49,771 nucleotides of DNA from Planctomycetales bacterium (GCA_020426925.1 JAGQPC010000229.1:1-49771), one strand, 5' to 3'. Shown: positions 14,542-29,633, counted from the first letter of the stretch. Made by a program: numbers and translations. The notes: a model not told the origin generated them from the letters alone.

Positions 14542-15900
14542 TCAATGCAATCCGTAACGGTTCATCTTGTAGTGCAGGGTGCGGACGCTCACGCCGAGTG
14601 CCTTTGCGGTGTTTTCACGGTGGAAATCGTTCGCGGCGAGAGCAGCTTGAATGGTTTCTTTTTCCGCTGCTTCGATTGCTTCCGTCAGCGTCAGGCCGGT
14701 TGCGGCGCTGGTGCTGGCGGTCGTCGCGAGTTCCGCCGGTAAATCGTTCGCAGTGATTTGATCATTGGCGACCGTGACAACGAGACGCTCGATGACATTT
14801 CGGAGCTGCCTGACGTTGCCAGGCCAGCTTGCCGCGGTCAAAATCTGGAGCGCTGTTTGATCGACGATTTTGGCTGCACGTCCATGACGCGAACAAAAGT
14901 GCGAAAGGAAGTGATCTACGAGCAGCGGGATATCGTCGCGTCGTTGTCGTAACGGCGGAATCTCGACCGGCACAACGTTGAGGCGATAGTACAGGTCTTC
15001 GCGAAACGAACCGTCCGCAACGAGTTGCGGTATGTCGCGATTGGTGGCCGATACGATTCTGGCATTCGATTCCAGGTTTTCCTCGCCGCCCACGCGAAAG
15101 AACTGCCTTGATTCCAAAACGCGCAACAGGTCTACCTGGCTCTTGGCTGGTATCTCAACGATCTCATCCAAAAACAGCGTGCCATCGATTGCTTGTTCGA
15201 AACAACCTGGCTTTTGCCGAGAAGCTCCAGTGAAGGCTCCTTTTTCATGGCCGAACAATTCGCTTTCGAGCAGTGATTCCGGCAGCGCTCCGAGATTCAC
15301 CGCAACGAATCGCCCTGACGATCGATCACTCAAGTCATGAATTGCTCGTGCAATGAGTTCCTTTCCTGTCCCGCTCTCACCACGAATCAGCACTGTCGCA
15401 TCGGTATCGGCCACCTGCTGGATCTGTTTGAGGACTTCTTTTAATGCTTGACAGTTGCCGATGATTCCAGAGACTTCGCCTGCTTTGGCAAGTCGATCTT
15501 TGAGCGCTCGGTTCTCGGTTTGCAGCCGATGGTGTTCTACTGCCTTCGCCACCTGCTGACGAATCAGCTCTAAATCGACAGGCTTTGTGATGAAGTCAAA
15601 CGCTCCGCGACGCATAGCCTCGACGGCTGTTTCAACGGTTCCGTGTGCGGTGATCACAATTGCCGTCGTGTCCGGTTCGCGCTGCCGCAAGAGCGAAATC
15701 AACTCCAGGCCGTCTCGATCACCAGGAAGGCGCACATCGGCGATGACCAGCTGAAATGTCCCAGCGTCAAATTTATCGAGCGCTTCATTCGCTGAACCGG
15801 CGGATTCAATTCTATCTGCGAGCTTTTCCAAGCCCTTCGCCAGCCCGGACCGAATGTTCGGTTCGTCGTCGACGATCAGAATGTGGAATGGATCATCCAT
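14542..15900 (-). CDS. Sigma54-dependent response regulator (NtrC family bacterial enhancer-binding protein)
   Basis: Receiver domain (ILIVDDEP ... VIADVRLPG). AAA+ domain with Walker A GESGTGKELIARAIH and the sigma54-contact loop GAFTGA (EKGAFTGAS). C-terminal Fis-type HTH (ENTAKALGVSVRTLHYKMNRYGL). Confidence 0.93.
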   Translation of the reverse strand: MDDPFHILIVDDEPNIRSGLAKGLEKLADRIESAGSANEALDKFDAGTFQLVIADVRLPGDRDGLELISLLRQREPDTTAIVITAHGTVETAVEAMRRGAFDFITKPVDLELIRQQVAKAVEHHRLQTENRALKDRLAKAGEVSGIIGNCQALKEVLKQIQQVADTDATVLIRGESGTGKELIARAIHDLSDRSSGRFVAVNLGALPESLLESELFGHEKGAFTGASRQKPGCFEQAIDGTLFLDEIVEIPAKSQVDLLRVLESRQFFRVGGEENLESNARIVSATNRDIPQLVADGSFREDLYYRLNVVPVEIPPLRQRRDDIPLLVDHFLSHFCSRHGRAAKIVDQTALQILTAASWPGNVRQLRNVIERLVVTVANDQITANDLPAELATTASTSAATGLTLTEAIEAAEKETIQAALAANDFHRENTAKALGVSVRTLHYKMNRYGLH

Positions 15901-15906
15901 GCACGA

Positions 15907-17277
15907 TTACTCGTTGGCGCTCGCGTGGCTTGCAGTCGGCAATGAGAAATTCAATTGAAACACTGTTCCACGCGGCGATGAGCGGAATTCCAAACTGCCG
16001 TCGTGCTGCCTCATGATCTTGTCGCATAACGCCAGTCCAAGTCCAGTGCCTTCGTCCTTTGTTGTAAAGTATGGATCGAAAATCTTGTCATGAAGTTCCT
16101 CTGGCACGCCGCAGCCTGTGTCGCTGACTTCAACGCAGATTGATTCCGAATCCGCAAATGCTGAGATCGTCACCTTTCCGCCGTCGGGCATCGCATCTAA
16201 CGCGTTGACGATGATATTGAGCAAGACTTGTTCCAATCGGCCAGAGTCGGCGAAAGGTTGTGGCAAATCCTTTGGCAGCTGTAGGTCAATCGCCACGGAT
16301 TGTGCACTAGCTTGCGGTGTGATGAGGTCAATTTGACGCTGGATCAATTGCTTTAGATCTACGCATGCAAGATTGAGCTTCCCAATTGACGCGAAGTCTC
16401 GAAACCCTTCCAGAACGCCGCCGACTCGCGCGACTTCTGTTTCGATCACACGCAGCATGTGACGTACTTCATCACACGACTCAGCGCCATCAGAGAGTTG
16501 CTCTTTTAGCAACTGCACATGCAGTGAGAGCGCGGTCAGCGGGTTTTTGATCTCATGGTGCAGGCCAGCTGCAAGCGACCCAAGTCCCATGTAGCGTTCC
16601 ATGCGACGCATGCGACTTTCGATTAGAAATCGATCGGTCACGTCGCGCAGCTGAAGGACGAAACCGATTTCTTGGTCGTCGATGTCGCTTAAAGTTTGGC
16701 AGAATGCCCGCAACACTCGAGCACCGTTTGCTGACAACTTGAAGTCTCGAGTCATTGCGACCGACTTTTCAACTATCCAGTCCTTTCGGAATTGTTCGAT
16801 TGGCACAAATCGAGAGAGTTCAGACAGAGGGTGTCCGACGCAGTTAATTTCCGGCCTCAGCATTTCCAAGCCGCGTCGGTTGATGCTGGTCACAATTCCG
16901 CTCAGGTCAGTTGTGATCACAGCTTGGTCCATGCAGCTGAGGATATCACCAGCTAGCGCTTTCAGATCACGCAGCGATTCCTGAGACGATCGGTAGGCTC
17001 GTGCCAACAGCACGACAGCGAATCCAGTAACGACCAGATTCAGAACAATCAATATGGACAATCGAAACTGCCATCGCAGCTCGCCTTCCAGAGCTTCAGC
17101 TTTATTCTTGGCAGAGACCGGAAGCTCTCGAATTAGTTCTCGAACAATCTGTTGTTCCGCCAGAAAGTCGACCATGACCCACACGGTTACAGCAAGTGCC
17201 AGCACACTTAACGCCAGCACAGCGACGATGGCGACTCGCCGCGTTCCGTCGGATTCGGCTTGCTTAACTCGAAACAT
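15907..17277 (-). CDS. Sensor histidine kinase (2 TM, short outer loop, PAS, HisKA, HATPase_c)
   Basis: H-box HHEIKNPLTAL, N-box LLNIIVNALDAM, and G-boxes DTGCGVP / GTGLGLAL. It lies 6 nt upstream of the response regulator. Confidence 0.9.
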   Translation of the reverse strand: MFRVKQAESDGTRRVAIVAVLALSVLALAVTVWVMVDFLAEQQIVRELIRELPVSAKNKAEALEGELRWQFRLSILIVLNLVVTGFAVVLLARAYRSSQESLRDLKALAGDILSCMDQAVITTDLSGIVTSINRRGLEMLRPEINCVGHPLSELSRFVPIEQFRKDWIVEKSVAMTRDFKLSANGARVLRAFCQTLSDIDDQEIGFVLQLRDVTDRFLIESRMRRMERYMGLGSLAAGLHHEIKNPLTALSLHVQLLKEQLSDGAESCDEVRHMLRVIETEVARVGGVLEGFRDFASIGKLNLACVDLKQLIQRQIDLITPQASAQSVAIDLQLPKDLPQPFADSGRLEQVLLNIIVNALDAMPDGGKVTISAFADSESICVEVSDTGCGVPEELHDKIFDPYFTTKDEGTGLGLALCDKIMRQHDGSLEFRSSPRGTVFQLNFSLPTASHASANE

Positions 17278-17370
17278 TTACGGGGCCTCTGCCGGAACGC
17301 TGAGTCCAGGATTTCTACAGCCCATTCATGCACGACAGCGACAAGCCGGTTGCTTTTGCCTCAACATTTC

Positions 17371-17406
17371 TGCAGCACGTTGCAGGTAACCTGCAAGATC
17401 TTGCAG
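17371..17406. promoter_or_regulatory. Two overlapping perfect palindromes, TGCAGGTAACCTGCA (17381-17395) and CTGCAAGATCTTGCAG (17391-17406); candidate regulator binding sites
   Basis: Read directly. TGCA(G/A) recurs at 17371, 17381, 17392 and 17402, about one helical turn apart. The sites lie in the 415-bp divergent intergenic region. Confidence 0.4.
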
Positions 17407-17681: not shown

Positions 17682-17697
17682 TGGCACCTTAATTGCT
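17682..17697 (+). promoter_or_regulatory. Sigma54 (RpoN) -24/-12 promoter TGGCACcttaaTTGCT
   Basis: Exact match to the consensus TGGCAC-N5-TTGCW. It sits directly upstream of dabA and opposite a GAFTGA-containing activator gene. Confidence 0.75.
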
Positions 17698-17791
17698 AAA
17701 CGTTGGCTACACCATCCGAAGACGCTCGCGACACCATTTCAGCAACCGCGGTTTTCGGCATGAACGCCTACCCGCAGCCCTCAAGACGAAA

Positions 17792-20700
17792 TTGGGACAC
17801 GACGTGCCAGCTTTGGACCTCGAACAAACCCCCGCCCAAGATCAGCCAGCGTCGCGGCAATCTGCCATTCGCCATCAGATTGAGCACGCGGCTCATTTGT
17901 TACCGTCGCAGGGCCCAATTACAGTCTTTGTTCATCACAACACGCTTCACTCGTTTGAGCATCTCGACTTTGACGCTGGTGTCCAAGTTGGTGGTCGAAC
18001 GTTTGGTTGCAACGCTTATCTGACTGAGGAACAATACCGCGAAAAGCTGGATCGAGGCCGCATTCGCGTCGAAGATCTGGAAGCCGTTTTACAGGAAGAC
18101 CTTGGAGATGAGGCCGACCGCCTCGTGTCGATATTCTGTACAAGATATTCTTTGCGGCTTTCCATGCTTCAGTTTTCGATGCACACAGGGTCGACCCATG
18201 AGCTTCGTTGGGTTGTTGCGGAGACGGACGCACTTCGGCGGTTTCGTGAAGAAGTCACATACGGCATTCGAGCAGAAATGCTGTCCGACACTCGCAAGGC
18301 TGTTCTTGAGGGACCAGCGGACACGGCCGAGAAACGTGAAACGCTTGACGAAGTGTTGCAGCAATTTGAAGCGCCGGCTCCACAGAAGTGGACTGACCGC
18401 ACGTGGGAAGCGTTCGTACTGAACTATTTGTGGCGCGTGTGTTGTGATGGAGTTCAAGGGGTCGAAAGGTCGACCGACCCGAAAGCCTCAAGTGAAACGC
18501 CGGTCCGCCATCGTGATGTCATCATCGCAGCTGGCGGTGAAGATCCCGACTTACCAGTGCACGAAACGTTGATCCGATTTTGTGCGGCGTTTCTCGATCA
18601 GGGATTCGCAGATTGGGACTTGCCGGGTCGGGAGCTTGGGTTTTTCAGTGCCTTCCTAAGGCAGCATGCCGATGGCGTGGTGCCAACGCGATGGTTTCGG
18701 GCGCTCCGCCATGAGTGTCGCAGGCTGTTGGACGCAGGCACTAAACCGATGGATTCCATTGAGGAGTCGTTGAGCTTACTGGGCGTCGACGAAAGCGAGC
18801 AGGAAGCGTTCATCACACAGTCGTTGCTGGCGCTGCGTGGCTGGGCAGGAATGGTCTGGCAACTGGAAACGAATGCTGAGTGGGCTCCACACCCCGCGCC
18901 TCGCGATACCTTGATTGAGTTTCTCGCGATTCGGCTTGTGTTGGACCGAATCGCAATTGAGTTAGCAGCACGCGACATACCCAACTTCAACGCTTTGCTC
19001 GCAGAACTTCGCACCAGCTTCAGGCGCGATTACAATGAGCAATCGCTATCTGATCGCCTCGACCTGCGAGCCTTCACCGTATTTCAGCTGGCACAAGTTC
19101 TTGGCTGGAGGCCGCGAAGTCTTGAGAATCTCGCGCCGGAGCAGTGGGCCGTGCTGGTGAAGGAGATCGAGTTGTTTCCCTCGATGGAACGTCGTCGTAT
19201 TTATCATCGAGCCTTTGAAAGAAAGTATCGGAACGAGACACTCGACGCCGTCATCGCTCATAATCATCTGACGCATCCGCAGCCATCGTCGCCACCACTT
19301 TTTCAGGTAATCACTTGTATCGATGATCGCGAAGAATCGTTTCGTCGGCATTTAGAGGAGATTTGCCCCCAGTGTGAGACGTTTGGGGTTGCCGGTTTTT
19401 ATGGTACTGCGATGTATTACCGAGGGCTTGGACACGCACATTTCAAGCCGCTATGTCCTGTGTCGATCAAACCGTCTCACCGCGTGGTCGAAGAGCCGGT
19501 TTACTCACAGGCAGAGCTAGAAAGGCAGAAATCGGCAGCTAGGCGGCGTCTTGGGAAGTTAAGTCATCAGACGCATCGCGGTTCCCGATCTTTTTTTGGC
19601 GGGATTCTAACGGCGCTCGCCGGATCGCTGGCAGTGTTCCCGTTGGTTGGTCGAGTCCTGTTTCCTCGTGCAACATCGAAGATCCGATCATGGTTGGGGC
19701 GGATTGTCGAAACGCCAGCCACTGAATTGCGGATCGAGCAGGTTCCGGACGAAGATCCTGAAGGAATGGGCTTTACGATTGGCGAAATGGCCGACATCGT
19801 TGAAGGAGTGGTTCGTTCATCCGGCCTCGCCGTCCAATACTCTCCATTGGTCTTCGTCTTGGGGCACGGTTCAACGAGCCTGAACAACCCGCACGAGTCC
19901 GCGTATAACTGCGGCGCGTGCGCAGGCAGTCAAGGCGGTCCCAACGCGCGAGCCTTTGCGATGATGGTCAACGATCATCGCGTTCGCCGCATTCTTGCTG
20001 ACCGAGGCCTGAACATTCCAGACTCAACGGTCTTTGTCGGTGGCTACCACGATACCACGAACGAGTCGATCACATTTTCAGACCTTGATAGGCTTCCAGT
20101 TTCACACCGCAATCAATTTGAAAAGGCAATCGACATACTTACCGAGGCGAGAGTGCGAAATGCTCACGAGCGATGCCGTCGATTTGAGTCTGCGCCGCTG
20201 ACGATGTCTGCCGAAGACTCGCTTCGCCATGTTGAGGACCGCCCCGAGGATCTTTCTCAGGCTCGACCGGAATACAATCATGCAACCAATGCGCTTTGCT
20301 TTGTCGGGCACCGCAAATGGAGCCGGGGGCTGTTCCTTGATAGGCGGGCATTTTTGGCCTCATACGATCAGTCGCTTGACGACGAAGATGGAACGATTCT
20401 GGAAACGATTCTCCGGGCAGCTATTCCAGTCTGCGCGGGCATTAGTCTCGAGTACTACTTCTCTACTGTAGACGTCGAAGGGTATGGGTGTGGTTCAAAG
20501 TTGCCACATAACATCACATCGATGTTAGGGGTAATGGCCGGTGCCGCGAGCGATTTGAGACCGGGTTTGTCTCAGCAGATGATCGAAATCCATGAACCGA
20601 TGAGGTTGCTATTTGTCATCGAGACGAGTCTTGCTGCGATGACGCGAATCATCGAAAACAACGAGGCAATCGCTCGGCTCGTGAGAGGTGGATGGGTCCA

Positions 20701-20893
20701 GTTGGCCGTGTTCGATCCGGTCACCCGGCACGTTCATCGCTACGTTCGTGGCGAGTTCGTGCTCTATGCACCGCATGAACGAGACATCCCAACGGTTACA
20801 TCGTCGCTCAGCTGGTACGGCGGACACCGTGAACATCTTGGATTCGCATCCATCGTTCGCCCAGGGAACGAACGCCAAGGAGGCGAAGTATGA
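17792..20893 (+). CDS. dabA: DabA (DUF2309/UPF0753), catalytic subunit of a DAB-type inorganic carbon pump; 5' end uncertain
   Basis: Family-wide motifs are present: [34 protein letters not shown]...[10 protein letters not shown] (CxDxR), [47 protein letters not shown] and PMRLLFVIE. These match what I recall of the Bacillus YbcC / DabA family. The ORF-track TTG at 17693 lies inside the sigma54 promoter. No in-frame ATG precedes the conserved core, so the in-frame candidates are TTG 17792, GTG 17804 and TTG 17813. Confidence 0.9.
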
Positions 20894-22281
20894 CTTTGGA
20901 TCAGTGGTTTTTTGGATTCGGTTTGGCAGTTGTCCTCAGCCCCGCAGTTCTATTGGCCGCGCTGGGCATGACCCCGCTGGCGGGTCGCAAGGTCAGCGAG
21001 CGCACTTCGGCACACCTGACGGAAGCCACTATTGTTGTTGGATTGGTCTCCGCCCTGGCGATTCTTGTTCTAATGCTCGCAACAGGTCGCAGGCACATTC
21101 CAATTGAACTTGGCAATTGGGTCGTGATTCCAGAGCAACATTTTCATTTCCACCTGAAGTTCGTCTTTGACCGTTTGTCCGTGCCGTTCGCGATCTTGTC
21201 GTTTGTCCTTTGCGGAACGATCGGTGCTTTTACGAGTCGTTATTTACACCGCGAACCGGGCTACAACAGATTCTTTCTTCTGTTCGCGGTCTTCCTTGTG
21301 GGGATGATTGTATCGTCACTCGCGGGCACTATTGAAACTCTTTTCTTCGGCTGGGAATTCGTGGGATTGTCCTCGGCGCTGCTGGTCGCATTTATTCAAG
21401 AACGAGTCAATCCAGTACGAAACGGACAGAGAGTTTGGGCGATCTATCGCGTCGCAGATGCAGCGTTCTTGATCGCCGCGCTTGCGTTGCATCATCTGAC
21501 CGGCGCCGGAGACTTTGAGGGGTTGATGGGGACAGGTGCATGGCCTGACGGACAAGCTACGATTAGCGAATCGCATGCACTTTTTGTTGGGATGCTCTTG
21601 TTGCTGGCGGCTGCAGGGAAATCGGCCCTGGTGCCGTTTTCTGGATGGCTGCCGAGAGCCATGGAAGGGCCTACACCCTCTAGTGCGATTTTCTATGGTG
21701 CATTGTCAGTCCATCTTGGCGCGTTCCTTTTGCTTCGCGTTAGCCCTTTGCTGGAAGTTTCATTGCCACTGTGCATCGCGGTGGTTCTAGTCGGGTTGGT
21801 CTCTGCAATATTTGGTGCGTTGGCGGCACGAGTGCAGACCGACATTAAGAGCGCGCTCGCGTTTGCCTCACTGACTCAAGTCGGAATCATTGTTGCCGAG
21901 ATTGGGTGCGGGCTGCGTTACGTCGCACTCATCCATATCATTGGCCATGCCTGCCTGCGGACATTGCAACTGTTGCGAGCACCCACGCTACTGCACGACT
22001 ACCACGCACTTGAAAACGCGATTGGTGGGCACCTGGAGCACGCTCCTACGATTTGGTCACGACTACTTCCCGACCGTGCTCGAGCGTTGGTGTATCGAGT
22101 AGCAATGGAACGTGGGTTCCTAGATGCCGTCCTGAAGGAATGCTTCGTTCGGCCATTCTTGTTGCTGTTCCGATGGTGTGATGGGATGGAACGCCGCTGG
22201 ACGGATCTGCTGTCCGGCGCTGAATCGTGTGGATCCGACCAGGTCAAACCGCACGTCGATTCATTTGAGGAATTCGTCTGA
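20890..22281 (+). CDS. dabB: DabB, NuoL/NdhF-like proton-conducting membrane subunit (PF00361 type)
   Basis: Motifs [13 protein letters not shown] and [32 protein letters not shown] parallel the NuoL motifs GWEGVGL and KSAQ.PF..WLPDAMEGPTPVSAL. The ATGA overlap with the dabA stop (20890-20893) implies translational coupling. Confidence 0.85.
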
Positions 22282-23684
22282 TGCCTGAACTTCACTTACC
22301 GTGGATGGAAGTGTCCATCCTGATTCCGCTCCTGGGCGCGATCGTCGTCGCGTGCATCAAAGACTCTGCGAAGGCCAAGATTGTGTGTCTTGTGGCTTGC
22401 AGCCTAACGCTGATATTTGCGGCAGGTGAATGGATCGATTTTGCCGGCCTCGACACCTTTGAAGCTCATGATCATTGGGATGTCTTCCAGGCTGTATTCC
22501 ATCGCGACGTGTTTGTAATCGATGAGCTCAGTGCACCCCTGCTGCCGCTGGCAGCTTTACTTTACCTGACAACTGTCATGACGACGTTGCGGACAAAGGC
22601 AAGCCGGTTCTCGTTTGGCTGGACGCTGTTTTCAGAATCTGTCCTGCTCGCCACGCTCGCCTGCCGACATCCGTGGGTGATCATTATGTTGCTTGCGGTC
22701 GCGGCTGTTCCACCGTGGCTGGAACTTCGTCACAGAAATCAAAACACACGAGTCTTTACCGTCCACATGGGCATCTTTGTGGGGCTTCTTTGTTTGGGGC
22801 AGTTCCTTGCTGGCCGAGGAGCGACGGCTGCAGATCCACCGATCATTGCTGGTTGCCTTCTGACAGCTGGAGCCCTGATTCGAAGCGGAATTTGTCCTCT
22901 CCATTGCTGGATGACGGACTTGTTCGAAAAAGCTACATTCGGCACGTCGTTGCTGTTCGTGACTCCGATGACCGGAGCCTACGCAGTGATGCGTCTGGTC
23001 TTCCCGATCGCGCCTGCTTGGGCGCTGCAAAGCATTGCAATCCTGTCATTGATCACAGCCGTGTACGCTGCTGGGATGGCTCTCGTGCAAACGGAATCGC
23101 GGCGTTTCTTTTGTTATCTGTTCTTGAGTCATAGCTCGCTGGTGCTGGTTGGCCTTGAGCTGGGAACGCCAATCGGGTTGGCCGGCGCACTCTGCGTTTG
23201 GTTGTCCGTAGGAATCTCGCTGCTAGGATTTGGAATCGCGCTTCGCTGTATCGAGGCACGCACGGGACGCCTGACGCTCGACAAATATCACGGCCTTTAT
23301 GAGCACACGCCGTTTCTGGCGAGTATGTTCCTGTTGACCGGACTGGCTTCGATCGGATTTCCTGGGACCATTGGATTCATTGGCGCCGAACTGATCGTGG
23401 AGGGTGCGGTCGAAGTCTACGCGTCCGTTGGGTTGGCCGTCGTCTTAGCTGCGGCTCTTAACGGGATTGCCGTGGTGAAGGCGTATTTCCACGTCTTCAC
23501 GGGAACACGCCATGCGGCGGCTGTGCCGATCCATTCCCGCCTTGGCGAGCGAATTACGATTCTTGTCATGGTCGCGCTGATTGTGGGCGGAGGACTCATT
23601 CCACAGCCCGGCGTTGCATCGCGCTACCATGCCGCGCGTGCAGTGTTGGAACACCGGCACCCGTCGCAGTCGCCGCAACATTGA
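22281..23684 (+). CDS. Second antiporter-like membrane subunit (NuoM/NdhD/MrpD-like, PF00361 type)
   Basis: Polytopic protein with [28 protein letters not shown] and [36 protein letters not shown]. The start overlaps the dabB stop (TGATG at 22279-22283). Confidence 0.75.
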
Positions 23685-23693
23685 AGGAACACC

Positions 23694-24455
23694 ATGCAAC
23701 ATTCTCGACAAGCACGTTGTGGCGACTTTTTGTTTCGTTGGCGGAGCTATTTGCCTATTCTGTTTCTGCCATTCTTCGCGTACAGCTTCCTGACGTTCTC
23801 GTACCTGTGGAACTCGCACACACTGCAGCACGTATGGGCCGCAGGTTGCGTGCTGGTAGCTCTCATTGGTCTGTTGGTTCGAGGCCTAACAGTCGGATTT
23901 GTTTCAGATGGAACCTCGGGCCGCAATACGCGGAAGCAACGAGCTGAAGAACTGAATACTACGGGGATGTATTCGATTTGCCGGAATCCTTTGTATTTAG
24001 GAAATCTGCTGATTTGGGTTGGAGTGTTTTCCTACACCCGAAACGTCTCAATTGTCGTCATTTTTGTCCTGACGTTCTGGCTTTACTACGAGCGAATCAT
24101 TGCCCGAGAGGAAGTCTTTCTATTGGGCAAGTTCAAACGCGAATACCGTGACTGGTGTCGCGAGACGCCTGTCTTTGTGCCAAATCCGTTCTTGTGGAGT
24201 GCGCCCGCGCGGAGGTGGTCAACTCGGATGGTGTTGCGCCGCGAGTACACATCAATACTGGCGATCGGATTGGCGTTCTTTGCCATGGATACGGCGGCGC
24301 ATTTTGGAGTTGAGAAAAAAATCTATGTCGATCTGAGTTGGACGTTGTTCGCGGTGTCGTGTGGTCTCGTGTACATCGTGCTGAGGTTTCTGAAACGACA
24401 CACGAGCGTTTTGAATGCCCCGAATGACTTGCCAGCCGACGCTATGAACGGCTGA
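23694..24455 (+). CDS. Isoprenylcysteine carboxyl methyltransferase (ICMT)/phospholipid methyltransferase-family membrane protein
   Basis: Polytopic protein with the family motif GMYSICRNPLYLGNLLIWVGV ... ERIIAREEVFLLGKFKREYRDW. It starts 9 nt after the upstream stop, with AAGGA ahead of the ATG. Confidence 0.7.
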   Translation: MQHSRQARCGDFLFRWRSYLPILFLPFFAYSFLTFSYLWNSHTLQHVWAAGCVLVALIGLLVRGLTVGFVSDGTSGRNTRKQRAEELNTTGMYSICRNPLYLGNLLIWVGVFSYTRNVSIVVIFVLTFWLYYERIIAREEVFLLGKFKREYRDWCRETPVFVPNPFLWSAPARRWSTRMVLRREYTSILAIGLAFFAMDTAAHFGVEKKIYVDLSWTLFAVSCGLVYIVLRFLKRHTSVLNAPNDLPADAMNG

Positions 24456-24506: not shown

Positions 24507-26480
24507 ATGAACAAAGAACTTGAAACCGCAATACCACGCGGCGACGCCAGTGGATTCGTGACGTACCTGAAGCAAGATCTCGTGTCGGGACTGCTCGTGT
24601 TTTTGATTGCTTTGCCGCTGTGTCTTGGCATTTCGATCGCTAGCGGCTATCCGCCAATTGCAGGTATTTTCACTGCGATCATCGGGTCGATCCTAACGAC
24701 GTTTATCAGCAACAGCGAACTTACAATTAAAGGTCCAGCCGCCGGCCTGATCGTCATCGCAATCGGCTGCATCAACGATTTCGGTGGTCCTGAAAGTCAT
24801 GACGCTTATCGGGCCGCGTTGGCGGTTGGTGCGGCTGCAGCCGTCCTGCAGATTTTGTTCGGGATATTTCGCGCCGGAATACTCGGCGAGTTTTTTCCGA
24901 CTTCCGCTGTACACGGCATGCTTGCTGCGATCGGTGTCATCATCATGATTAAGCAGGTTCCGGTAGCCTTGGGCGTGACCGCAAAGGGTGAACCGCTGGA
25001 AATGCTGCGTGAGATTCCACATTATGTCATGGAGGCCAATCCGGCGATTGCTTGCGTCGGACTGGTCAGCATCGCGATCATGTTTTTGTGGCCCATGGTC
25101 GGAAAACGCGTTGCGCTGCTGAAGAAAATTCCCGCGCCGCTGGTAGTGCTGCTAGTCGCCGTGCCCCTAGGGTTCGCGTTCGATTTGCTGCATGAGCATT
25201 CCTACACGCTACAGGGGCACAAGTATCAACTAGGCGAGCAATATCTCGTTCGGATGCCTGACCGCATGTTTGGAATGTTCGATGACATTACGTTTCCGGC
25301 ACTCGGGACACTTGCTCAACCAAAGGCGTGGAAGTGGGTCTTGATGTTCTTCATCATCGGGAGTCTTGAATCGCTTCTCAGTGCGAAAGCCGTCGACCTG
25401 CTCGATCCGTGGAAGCGCAAGACCAGCATGGACCGCGATGTTCTTGCTGTCGGCGTTGCCAACTTGTGCGTTGCCAGTGTTGGTGGGCTGCCAATGATTT
25501 CGGAGATTGTCCGATCGAAGGCCAACATCGACAACGGAGCGAGAACTCGCTTCGCCGATATGTGGCATGGGATATTTCTGCTCGCCTGCGTCGCCTTGAT
25601 TCCAATGGTGCTTCACCAAATTCCGTTGGCGGCACTTGCCGCAATGCTTGTGTATACGGGTTATCGGCTCGCTCATCCGACCGAGTTTGTTCACGTCTAC
25701 CGGATCGGCAAGGAGCAGCTGGCAATATTTGTAACGACGCTTGTTGTTGTACTCGCGACGGACCTTTTAATTGGCGTGGCAGCAGGGATCATTCTAAAAA
25801 TGGTGATTCACGTTGCGAACGGCGTTCCTATCAAGTCGCTGTTCAAGCCATACATTGAGGTGCAGGAGGTTGACGCGACGACCAGTTTGATACTGGCGCG
25901 GGAATCGGCTGTCTTTAGCAATTGGATTCCCTTTCGCAGACAGATTGAACAGATTGGGCTCGTTCAAAAACGCAACCTGATCGTCGACGTTTCCAATACA
26001 AAACTCGTCGACCACAGCGTTATGGAAAAGTTCGAGGAAATGGAGCGAGACTTCGAACAAGAGGGATTACGGTTTGAAGTTCGAGGACTCGATTCGCTTC
26101 AGCCTCTTGCTAACGACGCCCACGCAGCCAGGAAGCGAGGGTTGGCCTCGATTCGCCGCCTGATCATTGTCGCCGACAAGGAACTGGAAGATTGGTTAGA
26201 ACGCGAGTTTGTGGCATGCGGTTCGTCGGGATTCACAGTGATGCCCTGTAGCGGGGCTGGGCGACGCGGGATACGAGACGGGCAAATCAACAAGACTCCT
26301 CAAATACGAATTGAAGTCGTCGTTCCATTCGACGTGTGTAATCGCATTCTTGATTTTCTGCGAAGAGACATACTGCCCGATCATAGAGTGACGGCATGTG
26401 TGGAAACTGTCGACGTTGTTCATATTGGCCATTTCACGCCCGAATTGTCGGATGTTGAAGTGGCCTCGGAGCACGTATGA
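24507..26480 (+). CDS. SulP-family anion (candidate bicarbonate) transporter with a STAS domain and an extra C-terminal PII-like domain
   Basis: SulP N-terminal signature [30 protein letters not shown] and about 10 or more TM segments. STAS region [13 protein letters not shown]...[22 protein letters not shown]. The last ~110 aa have a beta-alpha-beta / loop / beta-alpha-beta pattern that aligns to GlnB. Confidence 0.85.
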
Positions 26481-26726: not shown

Positions 26727-27371
26727 TCATCCAATTCGGTCGGTGGCTATCCTGTATGCATCAGCGATCTCTTCTGGATCGTTGATCGTGACATTTAGAT
26801 CACGCAGCAAACCGTCTTGGAGTCCGTAAATCCAGCCATGCACCGCAAGAGTTTGAGCTCGTTCCCACGCTTCTTGAACCACCGTCGTATGACAAACGTT
26901 GAGGGCTTGCTCGACAACATTTAGCTCGCACAACCGGTCCAATCGCTCGTCATCGTCACCGATGATGCGGAGCACTCCATCATGCTTTTGCCGAACGTCT
27001 CGAATATGTCGCAGCCAGTTGTCGATCAGGCCCAGATGATGATTTTGGGTGGCAGCTTTGACGCCACCGCAACCGTAATGTCCGCACACAATGATGTGTT
27101 TGACCTTCAGAACGCACACTGCAAATTCAATGACGCTGAGACAATTGAAATCGGTATGAACTACGACGTTCGCGATATTGCGATGTACAAAAACCTCGCC
27201 AGGGATTAGGCCAACAATCTGATTGGCAGGTACTCGGCTGTCTGCGCAACCGATCCAAAGAACTTCAGGCGTCTGCTTTTCGGCGAGCTTCTTAAAAAAG
27301 TCCGGGTCTTCTTGGGTCATGGAGTCGGCCCAACTCCGGTTGTTTTCGATCAGTTGGGGTAAGAAGCGCAT
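26727..27371 (-). CDS. can: Beta-class carbonic anhydrase, E. coli Can-like
   Basis: Colinear with E. coli Can as I recall it: EDPDFFKKLAEKQTPEVLWIGCADSRVPAN (CxDxR), VFVHRNIANVVVHTDFNCLSV, HIIVCGHYGCGGV (HxxC) and LCELNVVEQ. Confidence 0.93.
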   Translation of the reverse strand: MRFLPQLIENNRSWADSMTQEDPDFFKKLAEKQTPEVLWIGCADSRVPANQIVGLIPGEVFVHRNIANVVVHTDFNCLSVIEFAVCVLKVKHIIVCGHYGCGGVKAATQNHHLGLIDNWLRHIRDVRQKHDGVLRIIGDDDERLDRLCELNVVEQALNVCHTTVVQEAWERAQTLAVHGWIYGLQDGLLRDLNVTINDPEEIADAYRIATDRIG

Positions 27372-27508: not shown

Positions 27509-29461
27509 CTATCTCCGCCGACGGGTCGCGCGATTCTTCACTGACTTTTCAGCTTGGACTGTGGCTTCTGCCCGATCGATTGCCCCGTCACGATTCGCGT
27601 CGAAATTGCGAAAAGCAAATTGACCAAAAGTTTTGGGGAGCTCTGATTCTACCAATCGACCGTTGTTGTCTTTGTCGAATCGTTTAAAAAAGCGGTCGAC
27701 CGTTTTCTTGACCAACCGCGATTCAGGAGTCTCAGCGGTCTCTGGCGGCTGAATTGTTTTCGGATCAACGGGCACCGAAATGCTGCAGTAAGTCAGCATC
27801 ATTTCGTCTTCCGACTGCTCGCCCCAGCGAACCGTTCGCGAAGGATCTGGGTTCGTCGGGTTACTCGCCGAATTGTCATAACGGGCTTCACACAGAATTC
27901 GCGTTTGAGCATCGAGCGCAATAGGTCGCTCCAATTGATAGGTGTGCTGCCAATTGTAGTCGTAATCGGGAACGTCCAGCAGAATCGAAGATTCCTTGTC
28001 GCGGCGAATTGTGCAGCGAAACGATTTCCCACGAAGATGCATGTGAGGCGATAGCGACAACAGCATCGCCTCCTTGGGGAACTTGCTTAGTGACGCTCCG
28101 ACTCGATGATTTGCCGCGTGTGCTGGAATGGCAAACGATCGGTTCTGTGCCAGCATTGTGAACACGCGCTCGGTTACAGCGTCTGGGTCCGCAAAGACAA
28201 TACCAATTCGCGTTACATCTGTTTGTGTTCGTCCTGTCGGTGTGTAGTGCAGTTGAAAAACCAATTTTGAACCGGCAGGAACGAAGTAAGCTTGGTGAGA
28301 CTTCAACCGCGTGACATCTTGCCCTGGGACATAGGCGGCGAGCCAGCTCATCGCTTTTTCGCCCCACTCGTCAGGCGTCACGACCGACACGATTGAATGA
28401 TGGACAACACCGCGGTTTCCGGGGACAACTTCCGCGGCCGCAATCCATTGATCTTCTTTAAATCCTGGATCAACGGTGAAGTACTGATACTCGATAATTC
28501 CTTCGGCGGGCACACGAAAAGGAACCTTCGACATTTCGAATACTGCGTCGGGCTCCTTTTCTAATCGCCAACCGTCCACGAACTTGCGAGGTGCAGGCAA
28601 ATCGGATTCATCACCATACGGAGCGTCAGCCTTCACCCAATCGTAAATCAGCTGTTTCTCTGATGGTGATAAACGACGAGCATTCAAGAACTTTCCATGT
28701 TGTGGATCGGCGCTCCACGGAGGCATGCGTCGATCCTTGACAACTTCGGCAATCATATCCGCCCATCCGACTAATTCGCTGTAGTCGTCCATTTGGAACG
28801 GACCGATGTCTCCGTCACGATGGCACTCGGCACAGTGTTTCTGAAACAACCGAGAAATCTGATTGCAGTATGTCACCTTATATTCGCTGCTTGGTTTCTT
28901 CACTCGGCCGATGATACATCCCACAGATTCTGTCGACGAATTTGAGACCGAATCACCGCTGAGCAGTTCTTCTACTGCAACTCGCAAATCGTGTTTCGTG
29001 GGAGCCGCGCGAACGTAGCCGACGCCGTACTGGTCATCGATTCGACCGTGGTAGCGCACAACTCGGTTTCCGTCCAGAACGAAGACTTCCGGCGTTCGCG
29101 TAGCCATGAGCTGATCGACGATTGCATTGTCATTATCTCGTAGAATCGAAAACTTGATTCCGAGTTCTTTTGCGTACTCTTGAATATCGGCCATTGAATC
29201 TTGCGAATTGGCGTTAACTCCGATGACGGCAACTTCTTTCGAAGAGTACTCGTCGGCCAATTGCTGAAGTCTGGGACCATAGAGTTTCGCCAAGGGGCAT
29301 TCCGTTCCCAGCACGGCAACCACGACGACTTTGGAATCAGCAAAGCTGGATAGCGCGCAGCTTCGACCATGCTGATCGTGAGCCTCAAATTCCGAGACCG
29401 GACTGCCGATGGGAGATACCGCTAGCGTGACCGCCGACAGCGCGTGCAATAAAAATGTCAT
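27509..29461 (-). CDS. Multidomain redox protein: redoxin/AhpC-TSA-like + c-type heme motif + copper type II monooxygenase (PHM/DBH)-like + two EF-hands
   Basis: Thioredoxin-fold region VVVVAVLGTECPLAKLY has a single Cys and no CxxC. Heme motif CAECHRDGD. Cu-ligand-like series VVHHSIV, FQLHYTP, PHMHLRG, DEMMLTY. EF loops DKDNNGRLVESE and DANRDGAIDRAE. The ATG at 29461 (MTFLLHALSAVTLAVSP) is preferred to 29500. Confidence 0.8.
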   Translation of the reverse strand: MTFLLHALSAVTLAVSPIGSPVSEFEAHDQHGRSCALSSFADSKVVVVAVLGTECPLAKLYGPRLQQLADEYSSKEVAVIGVNANSQDSMADIQEYAKELGIKFSILRDNDNAIVDQLMATRTPEVFVLDGNRVVRYHGRIDDQYGVGYVRAAPTKHDLRVAVEELLSGDSVSNSSTESVGCIIGRVKKPSSEYKVTYCNQISRLFQKHCAECHRDGDIGPFQMDDYSELVGWADMIAEVVKDRRMPPWSADPQHGKFLNARRLSPSEKQLIYDWVKADAPYGDESDLPAPRKFVDGWRLEKEPDAVFEMSKVPFRVPAEGIIEYQYFTVDPGFKEDQWIAAAEVVPGNRGVVHHSIVSVVTPDEWGEKAMSWLAAYVPGQDVTRLKSHQAYFVPAGSKLVFQLHYTPTGRTQTDVTRIGIVFADPDAVTERVFTMLAQNRSFAIPAHAANHRVGASLSKFPKEAMLLSLSPHMHLRGKSFRCTIRRDKESSILLDVPDYDYNWQHTYQLERPIALDAQTRILCEARYDNSASNPTNPDPSRTVRWGEQSEDEMMLTYCSISVPVDPKTIQPPETAETPESRLVKKTVDRFFKRFDKDNNGRLVESELPKTFGQFAFRNFDANRDGAIDRAEATVQAEKSVKNRATRRRR

Positions 29462-29633
29462 CTGTTCCTTCGTTCTGTTCCGCCTCAGGCCGTGCCTCAA
29501 ATCGACCTGATCGCCAAGGAGGGCACGTTCGTATTGTGCCCAAAGTGATCGACCATGTCACCTCGAAATTGGAACTTTTACTCACAATCGATGAGAATGC
29601 CGATTGTGCCGCCGATTTAGATCGCGATTTGAA

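Follow-up and report, generated by a model that had tools for sequence, protein, structure and literature searches.

In a 49,771-nt stretch of DNA from a Planctomycetales bacterium (GCA_020426925.1 JAGQPC010000229.1:1-49771; hereafter the window), we found that a transporter of the SLC26/SulP family carries a PII-fold domain fused behind its STAS domain. The gene, here called sulP::PII, is a single uninterrupted open reading frame (ORF) of 657 aa at positions 24507-26480 on the + strand, and it is the last gene of a co-directional series in the window that begins with dabA and dabB. The known PII-like regulators of inorganic-carbon transport (SbtB with SbtA, SbtB2 with SbtA2, and CPII near DAB genes), a subject of active research, have so far all been separate proteins. 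A regulator of this kind fused to an SLC26 transporter within a DAB operon is apparently undescribed in the literature: a full-text search, with key subscription papers outside its reach, found no description of a SulP-STAS-PII fusion. PII domains joined to transporters may, however, be mentioned in the original work on CPII.

Translation of positions 26151-26480 gave exactly the residues that had been quoted in an earlier note on this DNA, in which a PII-like domain was proposed at the C-terminus of a SulP-STAS transporter; these residues form the C-terminus of the 657-aa ORF. Pfam placed P-II (PF00543) on residues 551-638, where the whole protein scores 37.6 bits and the tail by itself 41.9 bits (E = 1.3e-10), compared to a gathering cut-off of 25. 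When the tail was compared with PDB sequences using phmmer, the match to TTHA0516 (2CZ4) had an E value of 7.7e-11, SbtB was found near 0.01 and E. coli PII near 0.1, and there was no match to CPII at E below 10. Given the Pfam score and the phmmer match to TTHA0516, the resemblance to PII is real and far above chance. A weak Pfam match to DUF3240 (E = 0.023) lay under the cut-off of that family and was dropped.

We then considered the predicted structure of the tail. An AlphaFold2 (AF2) model of residues 541-657, built on an alignment of 60 tails (A1), reached a mean pLDDT of 90.9 and a pTM of 0.80. Its topology is beta-alpha-beta-beta-alpha-beta, with strands at residues 547-557, 577-583, 597-606, and 628-637 and helices at residues 558-571 and 608-622, followed by a low-confidence tail. 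Every one of the best 50 Foldseek matches of this model in the PDB was PII or PII-like. TTHA0516 ranked first (E = 2.5e-10, target TM-score 0.84), SbtB and CPII structures came next with TM-scores of 0.75-0.9, and canonical GlnK/GlnB scored lower. The AlphaFold and Foldseek check suggested in the earlier note thus returned the ferredoxin-like PII fold rather than another fold or disorder. Pfam, phmmer, AF2, and Foldseek agree, and the fusion is conserved among relatives (see below); residues 547-643, as matched and as modeled, are a PII-fold domain fused behind SulP-STAS, which bears out the proposal.

The full-length AF2 model, built on an alignment of 79 homologues (A3; pLDDT 78.9), divides the protein into four modules: membrane, STAS-like, linker, and PII. 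The SulP/SLC26 transmembrane domain covers residues 1-437 (24507-25817, +), helical in the model to residue 437, with Pfam Sulfate_transp (PF00916) on residues 21-410 (E = 8e-55), and it is predicted to adopt the 7+7 inverted-repeat SLC26 fold. Foldseek matched the full-length model to SLC26 structures across the membrane domain and STAS (SLC26A11, prestin, AtSULTR4;1, SLC26Dg, and BicA), and the membrane domain alone had a TM-score of 0.80 to BicA and to SLC26Dg. The STAS domain, at residues about 445-531 (25839-26099, +), is divergent. A Pfam scan of the 657-aa protein gave no STAS match at E < 1; phmmer and the family profile aligned these residues with the STAS domain of SLC26Dg (5DA0), and in the AF2 model residues 450-526 form a compact alpha/beta domain (strands 450-454, 459-464, 490-494, and 523-526; helices 473-486 and 503-518).

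Residues 532-546 (26100-26144, +) form a linker that has a pLDDT of < 50 over residues 532-544 and contains a conserved basic motif, A541-R542-K543-R-G545-L546-A547. The PII-like domain of the TTHA0516/SbtB type follows at residues 547-643 (26145-26435, +); in the full-length model it spans residues 547-640, with a pLDDT near 90. Between its second and third model strands (577-583 and 597-606) lies a short T-loop, residues 584-596 (26256-26294, +), with the base motif G583-A-G585-R586-R587. The protein closes with a variable acidic C-terminal tail of low pLDDT, residues 644-657, which ends in E-H-V and together with the stop codon occupies 26436-26480 (+). About 126 residues therefore follow STAS, rather than the roughly 110 given in the earlier note, and they comprise more than the folded part (547-643), which is trailed by 14 variable residues. 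A Shine-Dalgarno-like GGAAGGA lies 8 nt 5' of the sulP::PII ATG.

We searched protein collections and genomes for relatives of the whole protein. Among the matches listed in the full-length protein search were at least 120 homologues of 646-736 aa with 73-82% identity, nearly all of which carry precomputed PF00916 and PF00543 matches. Using phmmer, we detected the tail in 121/121 proteins of at least 600 aa, including a few that have no precomputed P-II match. A scan of one genome per GTDB species, which used the single exact peptide pattern TACVETVD and is biased to close relatives, returned 34 loci, all in Planctomycetota (Pirellulaceae, Planctomycetaceae, Fuerstiella, Planctomicrobium, Thalassoglobus neptunius, and Rhodopirellula baltica). 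Because a single exact pattern was used, the fusion may range more widely: these Planctomycetota loci set a minimum for its distribution and are no sign of exclusivity. At the 34 loci, SulP, STAS, and PII follow one another in a single frame, except for two loci where a frameshift is obvious. Public domain annotation has, in effect, already catalogued the architecture implicitly, since Pfam places PF00916 and PF00543 together on > 100 protein clusters; the names given to the fused proteins in the sources go no further than 'SulP family inorganic anion transporter', 'DauA', or 'sulfate permease-like'.

An artefact of sequencing, assembly, or gene calling, in the form of a lost stop codon or a frameshift, could in principle have joined separate SulP and PII genes. 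Two findings might seem to point that way: the tail used by itself as a query returned P-II-annotated entries of 94-221 aa only, and at two loci (L001 and L002) gene calling gives SulP and PII as separate genes that adjoin or overlap. The short entries, however, have STAS sequence ahead of their PII part, and because they begin inside STAS we rejected them as a stand-alone PII family. In tblastn comparisons with the window, a single frameshift was seen in each of the two loci, near residue 340 for L001 and near residue 464 for L002; the positions differ, and further genes on both contigs are split too. The frame is continuous in 121 independent full-length proteins and in about 30 genomes. The short P-II entries of the tail search are assembly errors or fragments of the fused gene, the artefact reading is refuted, with practically no chance left to it, and the fusion is real and conserved across a planctomycetal family. 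As a separate observation, L001, L002, L006, L021, and L025 are long-read-like contigs in which single frameshifts split sulP::PII and neighboring genes, and public protein collections have thereby acquired spurious entries of 136-221 aa (proteins P0001-P0013) that pass for 'stand-alone P-II'.

Genuine free-standing relatives were found when we ran an exhaustive HMMER search with the tail family against 1.84 billion representative proteins (E <= 0.001). The 163 matches consisted of fragments of the fused protein, a few distant fused homologues (P0189 of 670 aa, P0154, and P0141), and many free-standing proteins of about 100 aa. A protein search with the A1 profile listed short free-standing proteins and fragments only and is no measure of how widely the fusion has spread. 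In a neighbor-joining tree based on 95 domain columns, all fused tails formed one clade in 1/200 bootstraps, or in 4/200 when P0189 was left aside. The 40 core fused tails fell together with a single short entry, read by us as a truncated fused protein, and the distant P0189 tail was placed among the free-standing relatives. Only the homologous linker and SulP body suggest a single origin of the fusion. Across related loci, the PII part is about 40-67% identical, compared to about 60-90% for the membrane and STAS parts.

The branch of the PII superfamily to which the domain belongs was assessed by comparing a profile of the tail family with the PDB. TTHA0516 gave an E value of 2.3e-33, SbtB from Cyanobium and Synechocystis 2e-16 to 7e-14, the Anabaena PII-like protein 3DFE 5e-14, canonical PII 5e-6 or worse, and CPII 1e-4, behind canonical PII. 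By these profile scores, the domain belongs to the TTHA0516/SbtB branch and not to GlnB, and a crude distance measure puts it much nearer the TTHA0516 type than cyanobacterial SbtB. The GlnB colinearity that the earlier note had seen by eye holds at the level of the Pfam P-II profile, which runs colinearly over positions 3-98 of its 102, and fails in detail, where the domain follows the TTHA0516/SbtB branch.

That colinearity, together with the weak phmmer matches to E. coli PII at E around 0.1, is what would speak for a canonical GlnB/GlnK nitrogen sensor, responding to 2-oxoglutarate and ATP and coupling anion uptake to nitrogen status. Canonical PII proteins have a B-loop of the form T-G-x-x-G-D-G-K-I-F and a T-loop of about 19 residues with a Tyr/Ser modification site. 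The window domain has L-P-D-H-R-V-T-A-C at the B-loop position, without the canonical glycine-rich motif, and its T-loop, which is shorter at about 13 modeled residues, contains no Tyr and no modification site of the Tyr51 type. The profile search also puts 27 orders of magnitude between TTHA0516 and the lower-ranking canonical PII, and the genomic neighborhood concerns inorganic carbon, not nitrogen. We therefore regard a nitrogen sensor as very unlikely.

The closest relative of the domain in both sequence and structure is TTHA0516 of Thermus thermophilus, which represents a widespread family of about 100 aa. The two have T-loops of equal length, the R-G-I-R of the window is identical to that in G-E-G-S-R-G-I-R of TTHA0516, and both domains end in V-x-V-x-R-x-x-x-F/Y. 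They differ in that proteins of the TTHA0516 family are free-standing and are encoded just 3' of a short Sbt_1 gene, whereas the window domain is fused and adds the conserved basic linker, three near-invariant cysteines, and the variable C-terminal tail. We know of no published function for TTHA0516. Free-standing relatives lie directly 3' of an Sbt_1 gene (SbtA-like, PF05982) in 5/5 informative cases, namely P0164, P0168, P0183, Thermus P0293, and the planctomycete P0359, which is represented by three contigs. The domain is thus of the SbtB type that partners inorganic-carbon transporters, placed in the window on a different transporter family. No Sbt_1 gene was found near sulP::PII in the window, where the domain is part of the transporter rather than a separate gene following SbtA.

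Two observations concern these relatives themselves. In Thermus sp., the P0293 gene (L044/L045), from the family typified by TTHA0516, stands directly after its short Sbt_1 gene, and the pair is divergent from purE/purK; PurK uses bicarbonate. This arrangement suggests a function for TTHA0516, a structural-genomics protein with a solved structure and no assigned function. The P0359 contigs (L046-L048) come from a metagenome-assembled Planctomycetes genome.

SbtB and SbtB2 (5O3P, 6MM2, 7EGK) share the PII fold with the window domain (Foldseek probability 1.0, TM-score about 0.8), have a T-loop base of the form G-x-G-(S/R)-R in which the equivalent of R43 is conserved, and are likewise tied to a secondary inorganic-carbon transporter. 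In contrast to them, the window domain is covalently fused, and its partner is a dimeric SLC26/SulP transporter and not the trimeric SbtA; the hosts of SbtB are cyanobacterial, whereas the window host is a heterotrophic planctomycete. CPII of Thiomonas intermedia (5D4N-5D4P) is said to be carboxysome-associated, to bind ADP/AMP with bicarbonate, and to be encoded beside DAB-type genes in chemoautotrophs. It resembles the window domain in its PII fold (TM-score 0.8-0.9), its genomic association with dabA/dabB-type genes, and its proposed role as an inorganic-carbon sensor. CPII is free-standing, however, and its sequence similarity to the window domain is marginal, which leaves the latter outside the CPII subfamily.

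We counted residue conservation over the 121 fused proteins. Positions conserved in at least 95% of them are R542, R550, R551, T553 (Ile in the window), G572, G575, T577, C581, G583, G585, R586, R601, and E603 from the linker to the third strand, and L618, R619, T629, C631, E633, V635, V637, and F643 in the later part of the domain; the fourth strand of the window, residues 629-637, reads TACVETVDV. The residues of the linker motif are kept in 107-118 homologues, except R544, which is Arg in 85. In the T-loop base, G583, G585, and R586 each occur in at least 116 proteins and R587 is Arg in 97, so the T-loop-like GxGRxxG segment named in the earlier note (here G583-A-G585-R586-R587-G588) is near invariant in its first part, whereas its last glycine, G588, is not conserved. 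Three cysteines of the PII domain are also near invariant: C581 (26247-26249) in 118/121, C611 (26337-26339) in 112/121, and C631 (26397-26399) in 116/121. Most free-standing relatives have no C611, and a redox or metal role of the three cysteines is conceivable.

A profile alignment related these positions to Synechocystis SbtB, pairing G39 with G583, K40 with A584, G41 with G585, S42 with R586, R43 with R587, R46 with R590, and N59 with Q599. In SbtB, R43 and R46 bind nucleotide phosphates, and an R46-N59 contact anchors the T-loop form that enters SbtA (PMC9974498). Both T-loop arginines are kept in the window; position 590 is Glu in 62 of the 121 homologues. We found no CGPxGC redox R-loop, and the 14-residue C-terminal tail of the window protein has no cysteine. 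Because some genuine SbtB proteins also have no CGPxGC (PMC9974498), the R-loop does not strictly define SbtB. Overall, the T-loop base and the core are under clear constraint, which fits retained ligand binding and is no proof of it.

The same residues can be read in another way, namely that ligand sensing has been lost and the domain now serves only to cluster or stabilise the transporter, as a structural or oligomerisation module, or to plug it as a constitutive autoinhibitor. The faster evolution of the PII part compared to the membrane and STAS parts would agree with such a loss, as would the short T-loop, the degenerate T-loop base of 4/121 homologues, the missing R-loop motif, and the fact that the equivalents of SbtB K40 and R46 are unconserved in the family. 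Folding alone, however, hardly explains why G583, G585, R586, R601, E603, and G572-x-x-G575-x-T577 are near invariant. These positions lie at the T-loop base and in the cleft, which form the nucleotide site of SbtB (PMC9974498), and free-standing relatives have the same residues. We rate the chance that sensing has been lost as low.

Our favored reading, which we hold to be fairly probable though far from certain, draws on the analogy with SbtB: the protein would be an SLC26 transporter linked to inorganic carbon and gated in cis, in response to nucleotides, by a TTHA0516/SbtB-type domain on a flexible basic linker. The PII domains would oligomerise, presumably as trimers, and adenine nucleotides would be bound in the clefts between subunits. 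The ligand state would set the conformation of the T-loop, and the T-loop or the core would dock on the cytoplasmic face of the attached transporter (STAS or vestibule), closing or opening it, as the counterpart in cis of SbtB acting in trans on SbtA. If the transporter moves bicarbonate or a related anion, its uptake or back-leak could be matched in this way to energy charge or carbon status, in concert with a co-transcribed CO2-hydrating DAB pump under sigma-54 control. We infer nucleotide binding, trimerisation, docking, the substrate, and the direction of regulation. Free SbtB proteins offer precedents. SbtB plugs SbtA via its T-loop (PMC9974498; bioRxiv 10.1101/2023.08.10.552651), SbtB2 cuts uptake by SbtA2 by 30-90% (PMC13187645), and in two-hybrid assays reported in 2025 free SbtB binds BicA, itself an SLC26 member, by a mechanism stated as unknown (PMC12454622).

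Several observations weigh against a cis gate modeled on SbtB. The equivalent of R46, although Arg in the window, is Glu in most of the family, the equivalent of K40 is Ala, the T-loop has about 13 residues in the model, about 4 fewer than that of SbtB, and 4/121 homologues have lost the GxGRR motif. Because the linker pLDDT is < 50, the AF2 model gives the PII domain no fixed position relative to the transporter. The residues that bind substrate in BicA are not conserved, and the NCBIfam BicA score is far under its cut-off (see below). There is also a mismatch of symmetry. PII proteins are trimers. SLC26 transporters are dimers (PMC6497670), and for this reason the closed 3:3 SbtA:SbtB complex cannot be copied; either higher-order assemblies form, or the PII domain acts outside a trimer.

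The first of these two options leads to a more ambitious reading, in which a trimerising PII domain and a dimerising SLC26 domain would give obligatory higher-order membrane assemblies, with PII hubs that switch many transporters at once. Such assemblies could consist of three dimers bridged by PII trimers or of an extended honeycomb-like array, and switching would be set by the adenine-nucleotide or bicarbonate state and might reach the neighboring DAB pump. We consider this improbable. In long-form HisG, a fused C-terminal PII-like trimerising domain coexists with a dimer interface as a hexamer. HisG differs in being soluble, so that D3 symmetry is possible for it; that symmetry is impossible for membrane proteins that all face one way. 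GlnK and AmtB provide a second comparison, in that a PII-family module controls or plugs a membrane transporter via its T-loop (bioRxiv 10.1101/2023.08.10.552651), with the difference that the AmtB trimer matches GlnK 3:3.

The genes upstream of sulP::PII raise the question of which protein the domain acts on. The operon begins with dabA (17693-20893, +; Pfam DabA, PF10070, E = 8e-234) and continues with dabB (20890-22281, +), which encodes a NuoL-like proton-conducting subunit with Pfam Proton_antipo_N and Proton_antipo_M domains and directly follows dabA in related loci too. A second Proton_antipo_M gene, NuoM-like, comes next (22281-23684, +) and is found between dabB and sulP::PII in 22 related loci, which suggests a planctomycete DAB variant with three subunits rather than the two-gene dabAB. 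A gene for a PEMT/ICMT-like membrane methyltransferase (23694-24455, +; Pfam PEMT E = 2.4e-9) separates the NuoM-like gene from sulP::PII in the window only, as tblastn gave no match in any of the related loci. The gene for the distant fused homologue P0189 (L040) stands just ahead of dabA-dabB and follows an OmpR-type two-component system; because it precedes dabA-dabB, the linkage to dab genes survives a change in gene order.

Given this linkage, the PII domain might mainly regulate the DabA-DabB pump in trans, with SulP serving chiefly as a membrane anchor that holds the sensor close to the pump and the domain acting in the manner of CPII. The recurrence of the order dabA-dabB-nuoM-like-sulP::PII in 22 related loci and the linkage retained by P0189 are consistent with this, the operons encode no free PII-like gene, and CPII structures are among the best Foldseek matches (TM-scores 0.8-0.9). 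Nine loci (L002, L013, L021, L023, L025, L027, L028, L030, and L031), however, keep the intact fusion with no dab genes upstream, and because the fusion persists there we favor a target in cis. A covalent tether of about 15 residues also favors the attached transporter, and the sequence of the domain places it near the partners of SbtA-like transporters and a long way from CPII (1e-4). Action chiefly on the pump seems unlikely to us, though cis and trans roles are not mutually exclusive.

The earlier note had also placed the fusion in the context of inorganic-carbon transport, and the dabA-dabB operon, an adjacent beta-carbonic anhydrase gene, and the pairing of free-standing relatives with SbtA-like genes support that link. 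The carbonic anhydrase gene (26727-27371, -; Pfam Pro_CA E = 2.4e-54) is convergent with sulP::PII. Its position is not conserved elsewhere; in L007 and L014, a beta-carbonic anhydrase with 28% identity lies upstream of dabA. Beside the carbonic anhydrase gene in the window, positions 27509-29500 (-) encode a 663-aa protein with an AhpC/TSA-redoxin domain, a cytochrome c motif, and C-terminal EF-hands.

The substrate of the transporter was considered by comparison with characterized SLC26 proteins. The 657-aa protein belongs to SLC26/SulP, and by its NCBIfam scores relative to the cut-offs (DauA 155/614, sulP 153/380, BicA 110.2/880) it is no orthologue of BicA, DauA, or the SulP sulfate permeases. 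It shares with BicA and SLC26Dg (6KI1/6KI2, 5DA0) the 7+7 transmembrane SLC26 fold followed by STAS, and differs from BicA and other SLC26 proteins in the extra PII-like domain after STAS. In BicA, the residues of the substrate and Na+ site are T69, D258, T262, G300, A301, and T302 (PMC13249358). A profile alignment of BicA (6KI1) with the window protein showed these residues to be replaced, T69 by A78, D258 by E288, T262 by S292, and G300/A301/T302 by S332/E333/I334, and S332, E333, and I334 are invariant in the family. A78 is encoded at 24738-24740, and E333, which is aligned with BicA A301 at the substrate site in TM10, at 25503-25505. The invariant Glu333 in TM10 is unusual and points to a distinct SulP subfamily. 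Since the sequence does not settle the substrate, assignment to inorganic carbon rests on association with the DAB genes, the SbtB-type domain, and the carbonic anhydrase of the window. Felce and Saier (2004) reportedly described SulP-carbonic anhydrase fusions. SulP genes that adjoin, or are fused with, genes for inorganic-carbon enzymes have been read as encoding bicarbonate transporters (PMC6458275).

Expression of the operon may be under dedicated control. A sigma-54 -24/-12 promoter element, TGGCACCTTAATTGC, lies before dabA at 17682-17696 (+) and is the sole zero-mismatch match to the -24/-12 consensus in the 49.8-kb window; perfect elements also occur upstream of dabA in L014, L018, and L020. 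The element overlaps the listed dabA start, a TTG, and there is no ATG in the first 76 codons; the true start is probably downstream of the listed TTG. About 290 bp upstream of the element, a repeat search detected an 18-nt inverted repeat (17370-17406) that is 78% complementary with arms 1 nt apart, a candidate binding site for a sigma-54 activator. A divergent two-component system occupies 14542-17277 (-) and consists of a histidine kinase (15907-17277; Pfam HisKA/HATPase_c) and a sigma-54-dependent response regulator (14542-15900; Response_reg/Sigma54_activat/HTH_8), homologues of which lie upstream of the operon in L002, L014, L020, and L029. Together, the -24/-12 element, the inverted repeat, and the two-component system look like a dedicated regulon for the dab-sulP::PII operon. 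A scan 3' of sulP::PII found no intrinsic terminator.

A conserved natural fusion provides independent evolutionary evidence that PII-like sensors regulate SLC26/SulP transporters. As a single polypeptide with a guaranteed 1:1 subunit ratio, the protein offers a system for structural study of how PII gates an elevator-type transporter, in which the mismatch between trimer and dimer is a concrete puzzle. If the higher-order assemblies described above do form, they would represent a new principle of cooperative, symmetry-mismatched gating, and the PII hubs would amount to 'Rosetta-stone' evidence for SbtB-type control of SLC26 bicarbonate transporters, including cyanobacterial BicA. The dabA-dabB-nuoM-like-sulP::PII arrangement is a conserved and apparently undescribed cluster in heterotrophic Planctomycetes, with sigma-54 control in the window and some relatives, and it points to regulated acquisition of CO2 and bicarbonate outside autotrophs. 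For efforts to engineer carbon-concentrating mechanisms into plants or other hosts, bicarbonate transporters that bring their own regulator are of interest.

Two further features of the fused proteins concern the boundaries of the PII part. In 52/121 homologues, a Met stands two residues before the first strand of the PII domain (family residue 549; Ile in the window, 26151-26153), and in these proteins an internal translation start giving a free PII-like protein is conceivable. At the other end, His is found at position -2 from the C-terminus in 40/121 homologues and at position -1 in 14/121, and the tails overall contain 5.5% His; the C-terminal His may be a recognition or ligand motif or may merely reflect common ancestry.

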